Source: a virus (taxonomy: Duplodnaviria > Heunggongvirae > Uroviricota > Caudoviricetes). From it: a stretch of 41,968 bases of DNA. Below the pieces are notes generated by a model that saw nothing but the letters and a program-made list of their open reading frames with translations, was not told the origin of the DNA and searched no databases. Location of the stretch: positions 1-41,968 of IMG/VR virus record IMGVR_UViG_2563366992_000001; one strand, 5' to 3'. The position numbers were made by a program, and so were the translations under genes. Positions 13,953-41,968 of the stretch are shown piece after piece (the first letter of the stretch is position 1; each line of letters opens with the position of its first letter).

Positions 13953-14738
13953 ATGTATGTTTTTGAGTTAATCAAGCCAGGCAGTAATCTTAAGTTTGAA
14001 AACAGAGAGTTAGAATGGACGTTTAATAACTTATTATCCCATTTAGAAACTGCATTTTATGATGCTAATGTAGCATTAAATTTATTCGAACAGGAAAGAA
14101 CTAAGAATAACAGTAAATTCGATAATATTTCTCAGACATGGCAAGCTGATGTACAGAAACGACAAGCACTGGAAATGCTGGTTCGTAAAGAGTTTGGTTA
14201 TCAACCTTATGAATATTCAGAACAGGTTTTTTCAGAGGTCGAGCTACGTCTAAAAAGAGAAAAATGGAATAACGGTGAATATCCGTTGGCTCATCAACAC
14301 AGATTGATCTTCTTACATGCAAAATCATTTCTCTACGCTTTGGATGCTATTGATAAATTTTTAAAGGTAATTTCAAAAGAAAATGGCGCGCCAGAGAACA
14401 TTAAAAAATTGCATGAACAGCTTTCTAAAGACTTTCCGGATTTAAGAAAGGTAAGGAATTCAGCTCAACACATGGAAGACAGAGTTCGTGGGCTTGGTGC
14501 AGAGAAAGAACCAAAGCCAATAAAACTCAAACCTGTAAATAATATTCATGTTGTTGCACCTCAGGGGGCATTGATGTTGAATAACTTATTCGGAACTAAA
14601 TTTGGGTGCACTATGGCTGATGGCTATTATGGTGAAGTAGATATTTCGACAGAGTCTTTGGCAAAGTTGCAAAATTTAATCCAAAAAGTTTTTAATTCCT
14701 TCAGTTGGGAAGGACCAAAGCAACACCTTCCCCGATAA
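13953..14738 (+). CDS. AT-rich moron protein of unknown function; candidate HEPN-like toxin (R-x4-H motif)
   Basis: 261-aa ORF between PR'/tR' and the holin; marked AT-richness versus flanking phage genes; motif RNSAQH; own downstream terminator. Confidence 0.55.
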   Translation: MYVFELIKPGSNLKFENRELEWTFNNLLSHLETAFYDANVALNLFEQERTKNNSKFDNISQTWQADVQKRQALEMLVRKEFGYQPYEYSEQVFSEVELRLKREKWNNGEYPLAHQHRLIFLHAKSFLYALDAIDKFLKVISKENGAPENIKKLHEQLSKDFPDLRKVRNSAQHMEDRVRGLGAEKEPKPIKLKPVNNIHVVAPQGALMLNNLFGTKFGCTMADGYYGEVDISTESLAKLQNLIQKVFNSFSWEGPKQHLPR

Positions 14739-15157: not shown

Positions 15158-15634
15158 ATGCAGGCTCTAAATTCCCAGCGTAAAGCTTTCCTTGATATGG
15201 TGGCATGGTCAGAAGGAACGGATAACGGGCGACAACCGACACGTAACCACGGTTATGATGTTATTGTTGGTGGCGAACTGTTCACTGATTACTCCGATCA
15301 CCCTCGCAAACTTGTCACGCTAAACCCCAAACTCAAATCAACAGCAGCCGGACGTTATCAGCTACTTTCACGCTGGTGGGATGCTTACCGTAAGCAGCTT
15401 GGCCTGAAAGACTTCTCCCCCAAAAGCCAGGACGCAGTGGCATTGCAGCAGATTAAAGAACGTGGCGCTTTACCGATGATTGATCGCGGTGATATCCGTC
15501 AGGCAATCGACCGTTGCAGCAATATCTGGGCTTCACTGCCGGGGGCTGGTTATGGTCAGTTCGAGCATAAGGCTGACAACCTGATTGCAAAATTCAAAGA
15601 AGCTGGCGGAATGGTCAGAGAGATTGAGGTATGA
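15158..15634 (+). CDS. R: endolysin, lambda R-type lytic transglycosylase
   Basis: Near-identical to lambda R by memory ([22 protein letters not shown]...). Confidence 0.95.
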
Positions 15635-17274: not shown

Positions 17275-17625
17275 ATGCCGCCACGAATCCCAAAAGCCTG
17301 CCGTGTTCGCGGTTGCCGCCATACCACCACAGACCCGTCAGGCTACTGCGAAAGCCACAAAAGCGAAGGCTGGAGACAATACAAGCCAGGCCAGTCCCGT
17401 CATCAGCGCGGCTACGGTTCGAAATGGGATGCTATCCGTGAACGTGTACTGAAGCGTGACAAAGGCCTGTGTCAGTTATGTCTGCGTTCTGGTGTGGTGC
17501 GTGAGGCGAAAACTGTTGACCACATCATCCCTAAAGCGCATGGCGGCACTGATGCTGACAGTAATCTGCAGAGTCTGTGCTGGCCGTGCCATAAGACGAA
17601 GACGGCCCGTGAACGGTTAAAGTGA
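17275..17625 (+). CDS. HNH endonuclease (terminase-associated)
   Basis: Cys pairs and DHIIPKAHGG ... CWPCH motif; directly upstream of terminase genes. Confidence 0.85.
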   Translation: MPPRIPKACRVRGCRHTTTDPSGYCESHKSEGWRQYKPGQSRHQRGYGSKWDAIRERVLKRDKGLCQLCLRSGVVREAKTVDHIIPKAHGGTDADSNLQSLCWPCHKTKTARERLK

Positions 17626-35383: not shown

Positions 35384-35985
35384 TGAATAACGCAGAATTA
35401 AACAGTGAATTAATTGCCACTATGGCAGGAGAAATTACTGTTTATAACTTTGACGTCATGAGTCGGGAGTATATTTCAGCTTCAACTGAATATCTTGCTG
35501 TTGGTGTCGGCATTCCGGCATATTCCTGTTTAGATGCTCCAGGCACCTACAAAGCTGGTTATGCAATCTGCCGCTCTGCAGATTTTAACTCATGGGAATA
35601 TGTACCAGACCATCGCGGTGAAATCGTCTATAACACCGAAACGGGAGACGCCAAAGAAATCACAACTCCGGGTGATTACCCCGAAAAAACAACCACTATC
35701 GCCCCGTTAACGCCATACGATAAATGGGATGGTGAGAAATGGGTGACGGATACTGAGACACAGCATAGCGCCGCAGTAGACGCGGCAGAAGCACAACGTC
35801 AGTCACTGATTGATACTGCAATGGCTTCCATTAGTCTGATTCAACTGAAATTGCAGGCCGGGCGGAAGCTGATGCAGGCAGAGACCACCCGACTTAACAC
35901 TGTGCTGGATTACATTGACGCGGTGACGGCAACAGATACCAGTACCGCGCCGGATGTCATCTGGCCTGAACTGCCGGAGGAGTAG
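35383..35985 (+). CDS. tail fibre assembly protein (active orientation)
   Basis: C-terminal motif LNTVLDYIDAVTATDTSTAPDVIWPELPE. Confidence 0.85.
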   Translation: MNNAELNSELIATMAGEITVYNFDVMSREYISASTEYLAVGVGIPAYSCLDAPGTYKAGYAICRSADFNSWEYVPDHRGEIVYNTETGDAKEITTPGDYPEKTTTIAPLTPYDKWDGEKWVTDTETQHSAAVDAAEAQRQSLIDTAMASISLIQLKLQAGRKLMQAETTRLNTVLDYIDAVTATDTSTAPDVIWPELPEE

Positions 35986-36388
35986 GCCATTCAATATCTG
36001 GCGCACTGGAAGTATCGACCAGTTCCAGGGCGTCCAGATAATCCAGCCACAAATTATATTGCGCCAGTTCCTCACCTTTCAGACGACCAATCGCCGCTTT
36101 ACCAGGCCATTGTTTACTGTTCATGTATTCGTTGGCCTGATTAACTAATCGCTGTTTATTTGATTCAGCGATTGAGATTAATTCTTCGCTGGTAAGTGGT
36201 GGCGCATCCTGCCATGCTGGAAAACCATTTTTATCTGAACCAAGTATTTTACCATCAGGCCATGCAACTCCTGCGAACTCAGAATAAATAGTAAAGTTTA
36301 TTTTCGTAGCGTTCTCAGGAATGGTTTGGCTATCTGGTGAAATATAAAATCCCGAATCAGAGGGATTAAAATAATATGTCTTTTCCAT
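35957..36388 (-). CDS. tail fibre assembly protein (alternative orientation)
   Basis: C-terminal motif YNLWLDYLDALELVDTSSAPDIEWPTPP; inside the invertible segment. Confidence 0.75.
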   Translation of the reverse strand: MEKTYYFNPSDSGFYISPDSQTIPENATKINFTIYSEFAGVAWPDGKILGSDKNGFPAWQDAPPLTSEELISIAESNKQRLVNQANEYMNSKQWPGKAAIGRLKGEELAQYNLWLDYLDALELVDTSSAPDIEWPTPPAVQAR

Positions 36389-36390
36389 AG

Positions 36391-36789
36391 TTAATACCCC
36401 ACAGCCATCCAGTAAATTGAATTTGTTGTAGCAGAAGTGTAAGTAAATCTGATTTTAGTTCTGTTGGTACTTCCAATATCAAAGCCCACAGAACGGGCAG
36501 AAGGATCATTAGTTGAAATAAGAGCGTTTACCGAACGACAAGCAGCAGGGAAAGCTACAGGTAATGTTATATCAACTGTTCCAACACTTCCTCCGGTTGG
36601 TGAGACAGAAAAACTCCCCCATTGAATAATCATCCCCCCAGGTAATTTCTGGTATCCATTGGCGGTCAATGAGTTACCAAAGCTGTTCATATCCGGTACC
36701 TGATTTTCTCCTGTCCCCACATTCCTCTTTGCCGCTTCTCCCAAACCAACGTTTATGAAAATGCAGAAATAACGAGCAAATGGCATCAT
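36391..36789 (-). CDS. alternative tail-fibre C-terminal segment (silent orientation, no own start)
   Basis: Reads LGLGE across the crossover site, as the active fibre does; would fuse to the constant region after inversion. Confidence 0.6.
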   Translation of the reverse strand: MMPFARYFCIFINVGLGEAAKRNVGTGENQVPDMNSFGNSLTANGYQKLPGGMIIQWGSFSVSPTGGSVGTVDITLPVAFPAACRSVNALISTNDPSARSVGFDIGSTNRTKIRFTYTSATTNSIYWMAVGY

Positions 36790-36815
36790 TCCTGCTTTTG
36801 TCAGGGAGATCTACC

Positions 36816-37370
36816 ATGCTTATTGGCTATGTACGTGTGTCAACAAATGACCAGAACACAGATCTACAACGTAATGCGCTGAACTGTGCAGGATGCGAGC
36901 TGATTTTTGAAGACAAGATAAGCGGTACAAAGTCCGAAAGGCCTGGACTGAAAAAACTGCTCAGGACATTATCGGCAGGTGACACTCTGGTTGTCTGGAA
37001 GCTGGATCGGCTGGGGCGTAGTATGCGGCATCTGGTCATTCTGGTTGAGGAGTTGCGCGAACGAGGCATCAACTTTCGTAGTCTGACGGATTCAATTGAT
37101 ACTAGTACCCCAATGGGGCGCTTTTTCTTTCATGTGATGGGTGCCCTGGCTGAAATGGAACGAGAACTGATTGTTGAACGAACAAAAGCTGGACTGGAAG
37201 CTGCTCGCGCACAGGGACGAATTGGTGGACGTCGTCCCAAACTTACACCAGAACAATGGGCGCAGGCCGGTCGATTAATTGCATCAGGCGTTCCTCGCCA
37301 GAAGGTGGCGATCATCTATGATGTTGGTATATCGACACTGTATAAGAAGTTTCCGGTCGGAGATAAATGA
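36816..37370 (+). CDS. pin: serine DNA invertase (Pin/Gin/Hin family)
   Basis: N-terminal GYVRVSTNDQ catalytic-Ser motif and C-terminal HTH; adjacent to the invertible segment. Confidence 0.9.
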   Translation: MLIGYVRVSTNDQNTDLQRNALNCAGCELIFEDKISGTKSERPGLKKLLRTLSAGDTLVVWKLDRLGRSMRHLVILVEELRERGINFRSLTDSIDTSTPMGRFFFHVMGALAEMERELIVERTKAGLEAARAQGRIGGRRPKLTPEQWAQAGRLIASGVPRQKVAIIYDVGISTLYKKFPVGDK

Positions 37371-37405
37371 AACCGTAGCACGTCGTATGCAAGATCGTGC
37401 TGCGG
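37353..37405. repeat. direct repeat copy A (pin 3' end plus hairpin)
   Basis: CCGGTCGGAGATAAATGAAACCGTAGCACGTCGTATGCAAGATCGTGCTGCGG; contains an 8-bp stem hairpin 37375..37403. Confidence 0.55.
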
Positions 37406-37427: not shown

Positions 37428-38297
<870 letters not shown>

Positions 38298-38377: not shown

Positions 38378-38426
38378 GGTCGGTCTCGAAACCCGTAGCC
38401 ACGTCATATGCAAGAACGTGCTACGA
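38378..38426. repeat. direct repeat copy B (degenerate copy of the pin 3' end plus hairpin)
   Basis: CGGGTCGGTCTCGAAACCCGTAGCCACGTCATATGCAAGAACGTGCTACGA aligns with copy A over about 50 bp with a few substitutions and indels. Confidence 0.55.
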
Positions 38427-38706
38427 CTGGCTGGTGAACTTCCGATAGTGCGAGTATTGAATGATTTCCAACTGTTATCGATTTTGCGTATTTTTTGCAT
38501 GAGAGGATTTTTACCTCCTCCCACCGATCCTCCATGGCTTTACGCCAGTGTCTCTGGTCTGCTATGTGCCAGTTGCGGACATTACAAATAGCAGTACGTA
38601 TTGATCAGTTCAAAAAAACCACAATATTTATTGAAACAAATGAAGGTAATGATATTTTATTGTGATGAAGTATTGGTGCTGGGATTTGACTTAAGGGAGT
38701 GAAGTA

Positions 38707-40026
38707 ATGTGCAATAAGTTATCAGGGTGTTTTCATGCTGTCGGAAATGGAACTTTTTTTACTTCAAAAATCCGAGGGGAAGATGGCAATGTATTTAACT
38801 GGGGTTATGACTGTGGCTCTACAAGTGAAAATGCCATAAATAACATAATTAACTCATCTTATATGGAGTTTGAAGACGGTGATAGTATAGATATGATGGT
38901 CATTTCTCATTTTGACGATGATCATGTTAACGGATTGATAACTCTATTAAGAAAGCACACAATAAAAAGATTGGTACTTCCTTATAGTGATTGGGCTCAG
39001 TCTATTAGGGAAATATGTATAGATGGATTCCATGGGTTATCACGTTCTGCCGCACTTTTTCAGTTAAACCCAGCACTATGGTTATATAATAACGATCTTT
39101 CAAATCGTGTGGAAAAAATAATTTTAGTACAAGGCAATGGTGGACCAGAGAATCCTGAGGAACCGATAACTCCTGAAAATCCTCCGAACAATCATGATGA
39201 ACCTTTGATACTAAGAGATGATTCGGAGGAATTAAACGATCCTGAACAAGAAAGACACATAAATGATGCCAAGGATAATATGTTTATTGATTTAGGCATG
39301 CCAATCAATAGTAGCGGAATGAAAATATCAAAAATCAACCACATGCAACCTATTGGTGCACTCGACGGTATTTTTGAATTTGTATTTTATAATGCTGAAA
39401 AAACATTTAAAAAACTCAATCTTGTGTATGAGAAAGATGAGGAATTTTACGCCATAAAATCTCATGTTAAACTTGCCGATGCTAAGAAAGATATTCAAGA
39501 AACAATTGAGAGTATTAACCTACACCGAAGTATCAACTCTAGTATTGATGTACAATGGCGGGAGAAGTTAAAGATTTGCTACCAAAAACATTTCGGTAGC
39601 ACCAATAAGGCCCAGAACAATATTTCTTTATGTATGTATGCGTCACCTAAAATCACCCCGCATGATGGCCTTTTCTTTTTCGGTCAATGTCAGGAAAGTT
39701 ACAATATTCATTCTTCTGGTTTGATATTTACAGGGGATATTAATCTGACAACCCCTGTTCTAGATGATTTAAAGTCTCATCTGGGCGTTGATCGATGGAT
39801 GAATTGTGGATTGTTTCAGATCCCTCATCATGGTTCGGCGACGTGCTGGGAGAAAGGACATACTAAAAGGATCAAACCTGCTTATTTTGTTCAATGTGCA
39901 AACCCTACATTAAAACATCCCAGTCAGTTTGTTTTAGATGATTTGAATGGTGAAAAAAGCATTGTTTATAATGCATCCCGACAAAATCCAGTACATTTTT
40001 CATACTTTTTCAAAAAGTATATGTAA
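38707..40026 (+). CDS. standalone ComEC/Rec2-like metallo-beta-lactamase-fold hydrolase (putative nuclease)
   Basis: Motifs CFHAVGNGTFF, SHFDDDHVNG (H-x-D-x-D-H), FTGDI, QIPHHGS and KHPSQ in the order seen in ComEC-type MBL domains; AT-rich; AAGGGAG RBS. Confidence 0.55.
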   Translation: MCNKLSGCFHAVGNGTFFTSKIRGEDGNVFNWGYDCGSTSENAINNIINSSYMEFEDGDSIDMMVISHFDDDHVNGLITLLRKHTIKRLVLPYSDWAQSIREICIDGFHGLSRSAALFQLNPALWLYNNDLSNRVEKIILVQGNGGPENPEEPITPENPPNNHDEPLILRDDSEELNDPEQERHINDAKDNMFIDLGMPINSSGMKISKINHMQPIGALDGIFEFVFYNAEKTFKKLNLVYEKDEEFYAIKSHVKLADAKKDIQETIESINLHRSINSSIDVQWREKLKICYQKHFGSTNKAQNNISLCMYASPKITPHDGLFFFGQCQESYNIHSSGLIFTGDINLTTPVLDDLKSHLGVDRWMNCGLFQIPHHGSATCWEKGHTKRIKPAYFVQCANPTLKHPSQFVLDDLNGEKSIVYNASRQNPVHFSYFFKKYM

Positions 40027-40138
40027 GAATAAACTATCGAGGTTTGTCGGAAAACAAAGCTGTTAGGGTAATGTTATGTTGTAATATTATCCGTCTATAA
40101 TTGAATGCTGAGTCCGCTGATCGCTCTTGAAGGACAAC

Positions 40139-40177
40139 CATACTCAAATCTCTCACATTGCAGGAGATTTGAGTATG
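40139..40177. repeat. perfect 14-bp inverted repeat with 11-bp spacer spanning the recombinase RBS and start codon
   Basis: CATACTCAAATCTC (40139..40152) and GAGATTTGAGTATG (40164..40177); the ATG at 40175 lies in the right arm. Confidence 0.7.
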
Positions 40178-40777
40178 AACACGTTACCGTGGAACAAAGA
40201 CCGTATCATCGGCCAAAAAAGACCGCTTCAGATATCTCATATCTGGGGGATCCGAATCAGGCTTGAACTGGAAGGTAAAACGCGCGATCTGGCCCTGTTC
40301 AACATGGCTTTGGACAGTAAGCTACGGGGCTGTGATCTGGTTAAACTAAAAGTATCAGATGTTGCATATGGTAGCTCTGTTTCAAGCAGAGCAACGGTGT
40401 TGCAGCAGAAAACCGGTAGCCCTGTGCAATTTGAGATAACTAAAGGGACTAGAGAAGCCGTTACTGCATTGATAAAGCTTAGTAATTTGCATAGTAAAGA
40501 CTACTTGTTCCGATCTCGGGTCGGTACTAACCGGCACATATCAACCCGGCAATACAACCGAATTTTTCATGGATGGATAGAAAAGCTTGGTCTCGAAGAT
40601 TCGCTTTACAGCACACATTCCATGAGAAGAACAAAACCTTACCTGATCTACAAGAAAACCAAGAATCTCCGAGTGATCCAACTTCTGTTGGGCCATAAGA
40701 AACTGGAAAGTACAGTCCGTTATCTGGGCATTGAAGTCGATGATGCGTTAGAGATCTCTGAATCGATTGAAGTCTAA
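40175..40777 (+). CDS. small tyrosine recombinase, FimB/FimE-like size (200 aa), catalytic domain only
   Basis: Catalytic residues in order: LRGCDLVKLKVSDV (Arg I), HSMRRT (H-x-x-R), LLGH, TVRYLG (Tyr); no arm-binding N-domain; ATG at 40175 with AGGAG RBS. Confidence 0.65.
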   Translation: MNTLPWNKDRIIGQKRPLQISHIWGIRIRLELEGKTRDLALFNMALDSKLRGCDLVKLKVSDVAYGSSVSSRATVLQQKTGSPVQFEITKGTREAVTALIKLSNLHSKDYLFRSRVGTNRHISTRQYNRIFHGWIEKLGLEDSLYSTHSMRRTKPYLIYKKTKNLRVIQLLLGHKKLESTVRYLGIEVDDALEISESIEV

Positions 40778-40783
40778 GGTTGT

Positions 40784-40805
40784 CAGGGCTGCGATAGCAG
40801 CCCTG
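40784..40805 (+). other. perfect 9-bp stem / GATA tetraloop hairpin after the recombinase (no U-tract)
   Basis: CAGGGCTGC GATA GCAGCCCTG. Confidence 0.4.
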
Positions 40806-40866
40806 TGCCAAGAACGGACTTTCTTGGTTCTGTTATTAATTATGGAGATAAGAAATTTATTTATGG

Positions 40867-40925
40867 CACTATAATGAGACTTAGGAAATAAGGGGTTAAG
40901 CTATATGACACTATAAGAACTAAGG
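40867..40925 (+). promoter_or_regulatory. paired direct repeats containing -10-like hexamers upstream of the last gene
   Basis: CACTATAATGAGACTTAGG (40867..40885) and CACTATAAGAACTAAGG (40909..40925). Confidence 0.35.
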
Positions 40926-40972
40926 ATGGGTTTCTAACGGATGAGTATATAACCAATTTAATAGGTGTTACT

Positions 40973-41968
40973 ATGAACGGAATTTGGTATAAAAACACAC
41001 ATACTCGCATTCCTCGCTTTGAATCTACAACTCATATTAATCAGAAAGTAGGTTATGCTTATGAAACATCAAGCCATTTCGTGCACTTTTATGGGCGTGA
41101 TGTTGGATTCAATGTTGTTTCAGTCGGATTAACTGTTGTTGAGCATAAAAATGGAAATCTAGATGAGTGGGTGCAAAGGGTTTTTGGCGCTCAAGATATC
41201 CAGCCATTGAACAAAGAGGTTGGGCATGTCACTCAAGGGGTGTGGAGACCTTCTCTTTACTATATGAAAGATATCGAAGTCGCGCTAGGTATTGATGAGT
41301 TTGAAAAACGCGCATCAGAACAAGCTCTACGAGTTCTCATTGAAAAAATTGATGATATTTTATTATATGTTGAACCTAGCTCTAGTGGGTTAAATTCATA
41401 TAGCCATAAATGCAGAGAGTTGTTGATTCTCGCATGTACTGAGGTTGAAAACCAATGGGTGTCAATAATAAATAAAACAAATGGATTCAAGTCAAATGCA
41501 AGGTACAATACCAATGATTACATTAAACTTTTGGATAAATGTTTTTTAAAAGACTTCAGAATACAGTACTGTAATTATCATGGCCTTAGGTTCTTTAAAC
41601 CATTTGATAGTTGGTCTATAGCCAATCCAACCACATCATTAAGATGGTATGACGCATATAATAAAACAAAACATGACAGATCTGGCGCATTTTATTTTTC
41701 AACTCTGGAAAATGTGATGGAAGCAGTAGCTGCATGTATTGTGTTGTATTGCGTAAAATATGGACCATTTAGTTTAACAGAGTCTAAAACAACGTTATCA
41801 ACAATTGTAAATCAACACTTTTCCATTTCATTTGAAAATAGTGACCCTGCAAATTATTACATTCCTGAAATTGAACTTCCACAAGGTTCTAGAGGTGATT
41901 TGTTTCTTTATGATTGTTATCGTGAAGGGCATAATAAAAATTGGATTAAAGACTCTTTGATTATATAG
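40973..41968 (+). CDS. hypothetical protein (331 aa), AT-rich cargo gene
   Basis: ORF with AGGTG RBS; no motif I can place; stop codon is the last triplet of the window. Confidence 0.5.
   Translation: MNGIWYKNTHTRIPRFESTTHINQKVGYAYETSSHFVHFYGRDVGFNVVSVGLTVVEHKNGNLDEWVQRVFGAQDIQPLNKEVGHVTQGVWRPSLYYMKDIEVALGIDEFEKRASEQALRVLIEKIDDILLYVEPSSSGLNSYSHKCRELLILACTEVENQWVSIINKTNGFKSNARYNTNDYIKLLDKCFLKDFRIQYCNYHGLRFFKPFDSWSIANPTTSLRWYDAYNKTKHDRSGAFYFSTLENVMEAVAACIVLYCVKYGPFSLTESKTTLSTIVNQHFSISFENSDPANYYIPEIELPQGSRGDLFLYDCYREGHNKNWIKDSLII

Follow-up and report, generated by a model that had tools for sequence, protein, structure and literature searches.

The locus and its features

The window analysed here, the whole 41,968-nucleotide stretch of virus record IMGVR_UViG_2563366992_000001, is a lambdoid prophage located at thrW, and its baseplate and tail-fibre region is of the Mu type. 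Near its right end lies a gene (int) for a small tyrosine recombinase, the start codon of which is embedded in a perfect inverted repeat. The gene is flanked on both sides by short sites with the core layout of tyrosine recombinase targets, termed type A and type B, and together these elements form a compact module that recurs in many bacterial genomes, plasmids and phages. The following features are central to the analysis.

38557 to 38580, plus strand: B-type site GTCTGCT ATGTGCCAGT TGCGGAC from the site scan; it starts the variable cargo region of the prophage family.
40112 to 40135, plus strand: A-type site GTCCGCT GATCGCTCTT GAAGGAC (TCGCTCA), with a degenerate right arm; left boundary of the module.
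40139 to 40152 and 40164 to 40177, plus strand: arms of a stem-loop with its loop at 40153 to 40163, the Shine-Dalgarno (SD) sequence at 40162 to 40166 and the start codon at 40175 to 40177.
40175 to 40777, plus strand: open reading frame (ORF) of a tyrosine recombinase of 200 amino acids (aa), catalytic domain only (PF00589, 2.9e-18; phrog_216 integrase, 2e-32).
40784 to 40805, plus strand: GC-rich hairpin CAGGGCTGC GATA GCAGCCCTG just past the stop codon, with a 3' arm that shares bases with the left arm of the following B site.
40796 to 40819, plus strand: B-type site AGCAGCC CTGTGCCAAG AACGGAC (GTGCCA), with a degenerate left arm; right boundary of the module.

A complete, catalytic-domain-only recombinase

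PF00589 is the sole domain match of the protein and covers residues 35-184 of 200, and the residues R51, K79, H148, R151, H174 and Y183 are invariant or nearly so in 28 homologues. At least 7,999 homologous clusters were returned by a database search at E <= 1e-5, and among the 120 matches listed nearly all have a length of 194-203 aa. Genomic relatives of ~200-208 aa sharing 60-97% identity were found in Enterobacterales, Alteromonadales, Pseudomonas, Burkholderiales and others. Judged from these sequences, the recombinase family is very large and spans gamma- and beta-proteobacteria. The recombinase is likewise complete by sequence and not a truncated integrase, because its homologues have the same length of ~200 aa. 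A preliminary description of this DNA had raised the possibility of a remnant of a conventional integrase; this reading was dropped, the homologous clusters listed being almost all ~200 aa long.

Two further statements of that description concern the gene itself. The stretch given there begins at 40127, which is an in-frame TTG without a ribosome-binding site; the ORF is 40175-40777. The likeness to FimB/FimE stands with regard to size, restriction to the catalytic domain and the R-K-H-R-H-Y residues, but does not extend to family membership, as the protein reaches 18.5 and 24.9 bits with the NCBIfam models PRK09870 and PRK09871 against cut-offs of 221 and 222. A PDB sequence search with the recombinase gave zero matches at E <= 1e-3, the AlphaFold2 model built from 28 close homologues was poor (mean pLDDT 51), and PADLOC holds no model for this protein.

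The inverted repeat over the start codon

The arm CATACTCAAATCTC at 40139-40152 is followed, after an 11-nt spacer, by its exact reverse complement GAGATTTGAGTATG at 40164-40177. The final three bases of the right arm are the ATG (40175-40177), and the SD sequence AGGAG occupies 40162-40166. Both the coordinates and the 100% complementarity agree with the preliminary description, which had reported a perfect 14-bp repeat with an 11-bp spacer around AGGAG and ATG. When the whole 42-kb window was scanned for perfect inverted repeats with arms of >=12 bp and loops of <=20 nt, no second one was found, and block shuffles gave a mean of 0.1 perfect repeats with 12-bp arms vs 1 in the window. The RNA of the repeat region folds into a 15-bp stem, and a 119-nt stretch reaches -34.7 kcal/mol (z = -3.65), a stability equalled by 0 of 200 shuffles. 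The inverted repeat is a correct observation and lies beyond chance. Zero Rfam families match the start-codon hairpin.

Two types of core site around the recombinase gene

Sites of both types consist of 7-bp inverted arms, GTCCGCT/AGCGGAC, around a 10-bp centre, the classic core layout of tyrosine recombinases. The centre of type A is NNTCGCTCAN, and that of type B, NNGTGCCANN, equals the A centre inverted with two changes. A pattern search for the B site returned 2 hits vs 0.17 expected. The A site at 40112-40135 and the B site at 40796-40819 form an inverted repeat around the recombinase gene, and in many lineages inverted flanking sites are located at about -63 to -65 relative to the ATG and about +45 relative to the stop codon. 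Cargo genes sit between a B site and the next A site, and the recombinase gene between an A and a B site. Elsewhere, gene-less A-B units of ~65 bp, with 15-18 nt between the sites, separate the cargo genes; the recombinase gene together with its 5' hairpin and its 3' GC hairpin occupies the place of the short spacer in these units.

The sites are strongly polarized. In 243 kb from 20 loci of the Enterobacterales type, 36 A and 27 B sites run along the polarity of the gene and 4 run opposite, with 0 sites in a reversed-sequence control; viral contigs, examined as an independent set, have 30 A and 32 B sites that follow the gene and 1 that is opposite. Arm and centre sequences differ in other lineages, in which the layout recurs, and their left and right centres usually differ systematically, for instance GGGTCG vs TGGCCG. 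Taken together, these patterns make it likely that the A and B sites are the targets of the recombinase. Two points weigh against this assignment: some Pseudomonas modules carry identical centres at both flanks, which weakens the rule of differing centres, and the A and B sites of the module in the window each have one degenerate arm.

Three smaller observations were made on the site sequences. Across the Enterobacterales modules (L003-L017) the gene-proximal arms, here 40129-40135 and 40796-40802, are degenerate in a matched way, with AAGGGAC and AGCCCT replacing AGCGGAC and GTCCGCT; this might hinder excision of the unit that bears the gene, or could be an accident of the lineage. The B centre GTGCCAA/G (for instance 38566-38572; L090 15344-15350) is a heptamer that also forms the crossover core of the sfx sites in the R64 shufflon, the substrate of the Rci recombinase, a match that may be coincidence. 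Finally, a sigma-54 promoter, hinted at by TGGCAC on the lower strand of B sites, was considered and dropped, since the spacing to a GC element is off by one.

The preliminary description had offered the 14-bp repeat as a possible recombination site and had suggested DNA inversion as a control over neighbouring genes. On this reading the repeat would serve as the crossover site at which the enzyme inverts a segment, in the manner of FimB/FimE or Hin. The minimal architecture is indeed that of FimB/FimE, inverted sites flank the gene as hix sites flank hin, and the identical flanking centres of some Pseudomonas modules make inversion conceivable there. However, a search for a second copy of the 14-mer, the check proposed at the time, found no partner at <=2 mismatches in the window, and matches with 3 mismatches occurred at chance level. 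Known tyrosine recombinase sites have an overlap of 6-8 bp, which the 11-nt spacer of the 14-bp arms does not match. With regard to the flanking sites, two positions distinguish the A centre from the B centre in Enterobacterales, and differing centres should block recombination between two such sites; the sites also hold one polarity along the arrays, and the recombinase fails the FimB/FimE family models.

Comparison of genomes points the same way. An artificially inverted module placed in its plasmid context matched no record over >=80% of its length, in assemblies that show the majority form only, and the uninverted order was present in ~54 near-identical plasmid records at >=99% identity, 0 of which were inverted. 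The arms of the 14-bp repeat vary freely between lineages and those of the A and B sites are conserved, and homology breakpoints avoid the repeat, save for one deletion remnant in Yersinia phages. On these sequence comparisons the 14-bp repeat is probably not a recombination site, and inversion of a segment that switches neighbouring genes is highly improbable.

Homology breakpoints and proposed cassette exchange

Where homology between genomes breaks off, it does so within the A and B sites. In the prophages L087 and L088 and in many E. coli genomes, the backbone is shared with the window up to 38571-38582, inside the B site, and is divergent from there on; window-related prophages carry differing cargo after the B centre, with homology resuming at the terminal A site. 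The similarity between phage P2 and a Yersinia phage extends through gene G into the left part of the B site and is lost beyond it. On either side of fun(Z), P2 has a B site (15335-15358) and an A site (17432-17455).

Whole units are also shared between distant contexts. A cassette running from B to A is 92% identical between L003 (6685-7695) and L012 (179-1189), with homology ending within the sites, and is located directly downstream of the recombinase in an IncF plasmid and 5 kb upstream in Erwinia. Another unit, which comprises the recombinase gene plus cargo and extends from the A centre to the next A site, is common to Buttiauxella and Rahnella (L007 9805-11667 and L021 5949-7813). A point on the other side is that the cassettes of the window itself are absent from the other arrays of 80 sampled genomes, so cassette sharing is demonstrated with other cassettes.

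The recombinase most likely exchanges or captures the gene cassettes that flank it, as the breakpoints and shared units suggest. Because the centres differ, A would recombine with A only and B with B only. Cassettes with or without the recombinase gene would be excised, inserted or swapped between replicons that offer docking sites, and the prophages, P2-like phages and plasmids that carry A and B sites could all act as such replicons.

Spread of the module

The module spans ~710 bp, from 40112 to ~40822, and is ~92% identical in 855 E. coli records (853 of 5,426 complete genomes); the same module occurs in 578 plasmids, mostly of Klebsiella. Its flanking DNA on either side varies among these records. 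In other genomes the module starts at 40112-40121 and ends at 40814-40826, and it occupies a median of 1 and a maximum of 3 places per E. coli genome. Its only gene is int, with no regulator gene travelling along.

Such a distribution raises the question of a transposon. The A-int-B module could be a minimal element resembling an insertion sequence (IS) with terminal inverted repeats, the 65-bp units being its non-autonomous miniatures and the hairpin an IS10/IS50-type safeguard against being switched on by outside promoters. A ~710-bp module bounded by inverted repeats and found with different flanks in hundreds of genomes fits this picture, as do the short gene-less derivatives, and sequestering of the SD sequence and AUG in read-through transcripts is known from IS10 and IS50. 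The breakpoints, however, lie within the site centres instead of at the outer edges of the repeats, no target-site duplication was observed, and the copy number is low. Moreover, the sites are not scattered: they form ordered, uniformly polarized arrays with cargo genes in between, and to our knowledge no bacterial IS family uses a PF00589 recombinase in such a way. An IS-like transposon is thus quite unlikely, and site-specific exchange of cassettes remains the preferred reading of the module.

P2-like Yersinia phages contain the first 83 bp of the module only (40112-40194), beside a cargo gene located between the tail-fibre and sheath genes; the order there is B site, cargo gene, A site and a remnant of the recombinase gene with the hairpin. 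Among the viral prophage contigs L121-L156, many likewise carry only fragments of the recombinase gene, for example residues 162-200 or 25-102. It would seem that the gene often decays or is partly deleted beside sites that are kept, as in the Yersinia phages.

The position of the GC-rich hairpin after the stop codon is kept across lineages (L007-L086), with differing sequences. Because it has no U-tract, it may be an mRNA stabiliser at the 3' end or an additional binding element. A terminator-like stem with a T-rich tail at 40807-40828 is formed by the right half of the B site and the first bases of the next cassette and is specific to this context.

Probable role of the start-codon hairpin

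The stem-loop that pairs the SD sequence, and usually the AUG as well, recurs in relatives down to 60% identity with matched changes in both arms. The arms co-vary from CATACTCAAATCTC/GAGATTTGAGTATG in the window to CATAATCAAATCTCC/GGAGGTTTGATTATG in Edaphovirga, GGTTCTCC/GGAGAACC in Colwellia and GTCCTCC/GGAGGAC in Pseudomonas. Of 79 unique leaders, 65 have at least 75% of the SD sequence paired, 35 have the whole AUG paired and 52 have >=2 nt of it paired; in the independent viral set, the SD sequence is paired in 10 and the AUG in 9 of 12 distinct leaders. An alignment-free duplex test compared pairing of each leader with its own and with foreign SD-AUG segments: the own segment pairs better in 68 of 79 leaders (Wilcoxon p = 4e-11), and p = 1e-6 was obtained with the SD sequence left out. 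A covariance model of the hairpin recovered the closer lineages alone and also gave hits on the minus strand, because the element is palindromic; its alignment was not used for the pair counts.

The only sigma-70-like promoter predicted nearby is at 39943-39972, within the upstream cargo. Because of this position, transcripts starting there would carry the whole stem. A stable stem in such mRNA would pair the SD sequence and the AUG, and for this reason read-through transcripts entering from the upstream cassette would be poorly translated and the recombinase kept scarce.

Several results weigh against a role in translation. The leader sequences are phylogenetically related, which makes the p-values optimistic. 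The predicted fold covers the SD sequence poorly in about one fifth of the leaders and leaves the AUG unpaired in one third. A consensus scan found no sigma-70-like promoter inside the module; the -10-like CATACT/CATAAT with which the left arm begins lacks a -35 partner, and the scan of 40112-40175 was empty. In addition, the mean fold energy is -13.7 kcal/mol for the coding strand vs -14.9 for the reverse complement, with few G-U pairs, and without strand asymmetry in the fold energies an RNA stem and a DNA palindrome are not separable by this measure.

These last figures suit another reading, in which the repeat acts in the DNA as an operator: a regulator that binds as a dimer, and that might be the recombinase itself, would cover the gene start and so repress transcription of int. 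A perfect palindrome over a gene start is typical of operators, an equally good fold on the opposite strand and rare G-U pairs are expected of a DNA palindrome, and half-sites would also change together if the binding protein had co-evolved. Against this, the arms are almost wholly different between lineages with 60%-identical recombinases, and yet the complement to the SD sequence and AUG is always kept. The arms of the repeat do not look like GTCCGCT/AGCGGAC, the conserved arms presumably bound by the recombinase; the module carries int but no regulator gene, and the consensus scan found no promoter overlapping the repeat. An operator is therefore unlikely.

It was also considered that the stem-loop insulates int as a transcriptional terminator against read-through from upstream cargo, with the overlap with the SD sequence and AUG being incidental. 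A stable 15-bp stem does lie between two genes, and palindromes are also formed by the gene-less A-B units and by the GC hairpin that follows int, which could be insulators between cassettes. But the stem is not followed by a U-tract and was not called by the terminator scan, and an intrinsic terminator was dropped as a candidate. Furthermore, in all lineages the stem keeps its position relative to the SD sequence and AUG and not relative to where the upstream gene ends; that gene runs on the opposite strand in about half of the loci. Insulation as the function of the stem is very unlikely.

Of the three options named in the preliminary description (recombination site, operator or RNA hairpin occluding translation), the last is the best fit, given that pairing with the SD sequence and AUG is kept while the sequence changes; an action of the hairpin on translation is somewhat better supported than its absence. 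The combined explanation, in which we infer recombination at the sites, their pairing partners, translational repression and its relief, joins cassette exchange at the A and B sites with a start-codon hairpin that limits translation, and is favoured with moderate confidence.

Cargo cassettes and their prophage setting

The cargo of the window is arranged around the module in cassettes bounded by the sites.

38581 to 40111, plus strand: cargo cassette 1 with a metallo-beta-lactamase (MBL)-fold protein (ORF 38707-40026), enclosed by a B site (left) and an A site (right).
40820 to 41968, plus strand: cargo cassette 2 with a 331-aa protein (ORF 40973-41968; phrog_19461, PHROG 1.5e-187).
L001 14097-14120, 28 nt past the window end: A site GTCCGCT CCTCGCTCAT closing cassette 2.

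L001 is the locus of the window extended beyond the window end. After its A site at 14097-14120 follow a DUF4145/PD-T7-3-like cassette and the terminal A site (L001 15700-15723). The gene order behind a serine invertase is a PD-T4-3 gene, the MBL-fold gene, the recombinase gene and the gene for the 331-aa protein, and then, beyond the window, the DUF4145/PD-T7-3-like gene and the prophage end. The MBL-fold protein shows weak matches to PADLOC LmuA (1.3e-11) and RTasMBL, a reverse transcriptase-associated MBL (2.6e-10), and its NCBIfam matches to Avs1a and ComEC are far under the cut-off.

Recombinase-adjacent cargo is extremely diverse: 148 neighbouring ORFs fall into 134 Pfam families. It includes many defence genes, such as components of SIR2, Argonaute, Gabija, Thoeris, DRT, Old and Menshen, as well as regulators (LysR, MarR), transporters and acetyltransferases. 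Neighbouring ORFs are found on either strand (81 vs 76), and the cargo often measures 1-9 kb. A site-bounded segment in IncF plasmids of Klebsiella and E. coli (L003 257-3953) contains a BCCT (BetT) transporter and a DUF2254 protein with no defence genes, so the cargo is not confined to immunity.

Other elements of the prophage lie outside the cassettes. The Pin/Gin-type serine invertase (Resolvase plus HTH_7, 36780-37370) adjoins opposed ORFs for a tail fibre and tail-fibre assembly (35957-36789); this is presumably the usual invertible host-range segment, a recombination system separate from the 200-aa recombinase. A full-length PD-T4-3 GIY-YIG defence protein is encoded at 37428-38252 on the minus strand (PADLOC, 6e-140) and belongs to the conserved backbone, outside the site-bounded cargo. 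A weak partial match to CssrB, a Shigella small RNA, at 37348-37404 scores 32 bits vs a gathering score of 76 and is probably not significant. Just upstream of the first B site, a stretch of ~110 bp (38388-38496) is present in more than 3,000 E. coli records at up to 7 places per genome, where it is annotated as pseudo 'capsid' or 'nucleocapsid' protein or not at all; it is a very common prophage element, matched by zero Rfam families.

Insertion sequences have entered related loci. In strain FY10, the MBL-fold cargo region is interrupted by a copy of ISKpn26 (L001 10734-11714), and in strain CS18F (L089 10046-12262) ISKpn26, IS26 and IS1 have rearranged the same prophage, with loss of structural genes and an intact cargo array.

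Significance

Prophage and plasmid hotspots that hold different anti-phage systems at one position are well documented, and the clean exchange of their cargo is mostly unexplained. If the recombinase acts on the A and B sites, the turnover of cargo in several unrelated mobile elements would come down to one small enzyme, and the exchange system would supply a mechanism behind prophage defence hotspots such as Z/fun of P2. The system is a widespread candidate for cassette exchange, with its parts well defined in sequence, namely the repeat, the sites and their polarity, the breakpoints inside the sites and the conserved pairing. A broader proposal is put forward tentatively: a self-contained cassette-exchange system apart from integrons, with a 200-aa recombinase that lacks a core-binding domain and is nested in a composite of two core sites with differing centres, may move and swap multi-gene, largely defence cargo between docking sites of P2-like phages, lambdoid prophages and plasmids across gamma- and beta-proteobacteria, with the hairpin as a gate that keeps the recombinase silent until signalled.

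Two site types with different centres would be the natural counterpart of engineered recombinase-mediated cassette exchange, and a 200-aa recombinase with 24-bp sites could serve as a tool. The hairpin would also offer a simple handle on how the recombinase is kept quiet.

Comparison with known systems

The searchable literature, which is the scope of this statement and not proof of absence, contained nothing on a nested 200-aa recombinase, on the two site types, on the breadth of the family or on the start-codon hairpin. The prior art for the cassette idea are the inverted repeats flanking the Z/fun locus of P2-like phages, described by Nilsson, Karlsson and Haggard-Ljungquist (2004, Mol Biol Evol 21:1) as summarized in a passage of the review PMC8987985. 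The fun(Z) gene is bounded by a B and an A site of the same kind as those in the window, and their identity with the repeats of 2004 is assumed. The locus of the window differs in being part of a lambdoid prophage rather than a P2-like phage and in containing the recombinase gene itself.

FimB and FimE resemble the recombinase in their size of ~200 aa, the catalytic domain as the only domain and the full set of catalytic residues. In addition to the family models that the recombinase fails, a difference is found at the locus, where there is no promoter-bearing invertible element, and neither the window nor the plasmid records gave a sign of inversion.

The predicted hairpin is reminiscent of fold-back inhibition in IS10 and IS50, in that the SD sequence and AUG of an enzyme of mobile DNA are paired with an upstream segment, and transcription coming in from neighbouring DNA would be expected to leave the enzyme unexpressed. 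IS10 and IS50 have a promoter of their own that starts within the repeat, and the mRNA made from it escapes fold-back; here, the consensus scan found no promoter inside the repeat. The enzymes differ as well, a tyrosine recombinase here and a DDE transposase there.

The pdif modules of Acinetobacter plasmids, which depend on XerC/XerD, are similar in combining accessory-gene modules with short core sites of alternating orientation, each built of inverted arms and a short centre, in varied plasmid contexts. However, pdif sites are bound by the chromosomal XerC and XerD, whereas a dedicated catalytic-domain-only recombinase is encoded within the array here. The protein scores 48.9 bits with XerC and 30.9 bits with XerD against cut-offs of 335 and 330, and the arms GTCCGCT/AGCGGAC are unlike those of dif, which has an 11-6-11 layout.

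In layout the arrays also resemble integrons, in which a tyrosine recombinase is likewise associated with arrays of diverse accessory genes, including defence cargo; in the present arrays, imperfect palindromic units of ~65 bp lie in between. This is an analogy of layout only, the site sequences being unrelated to attC. The recombinase reaches 15.5 bits vs a cut-off of 435 for IntI (NCBIfam PRK15417), lacks a core-binding or IntI-specific domain, and has 200 aa in contrast to ~320-340 aa in IntI. The cargo occurs in either orientation and includes regulators, and is thus neither promoterless nor co-oriented, in contrast to integron cassettes, which for the most part are read from one shared promoter beside attI. 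The sites resemble ordinary double-stranded core sites and are of two kinds, and the recombinase gene lies inside a composite site instead of beside an attI.

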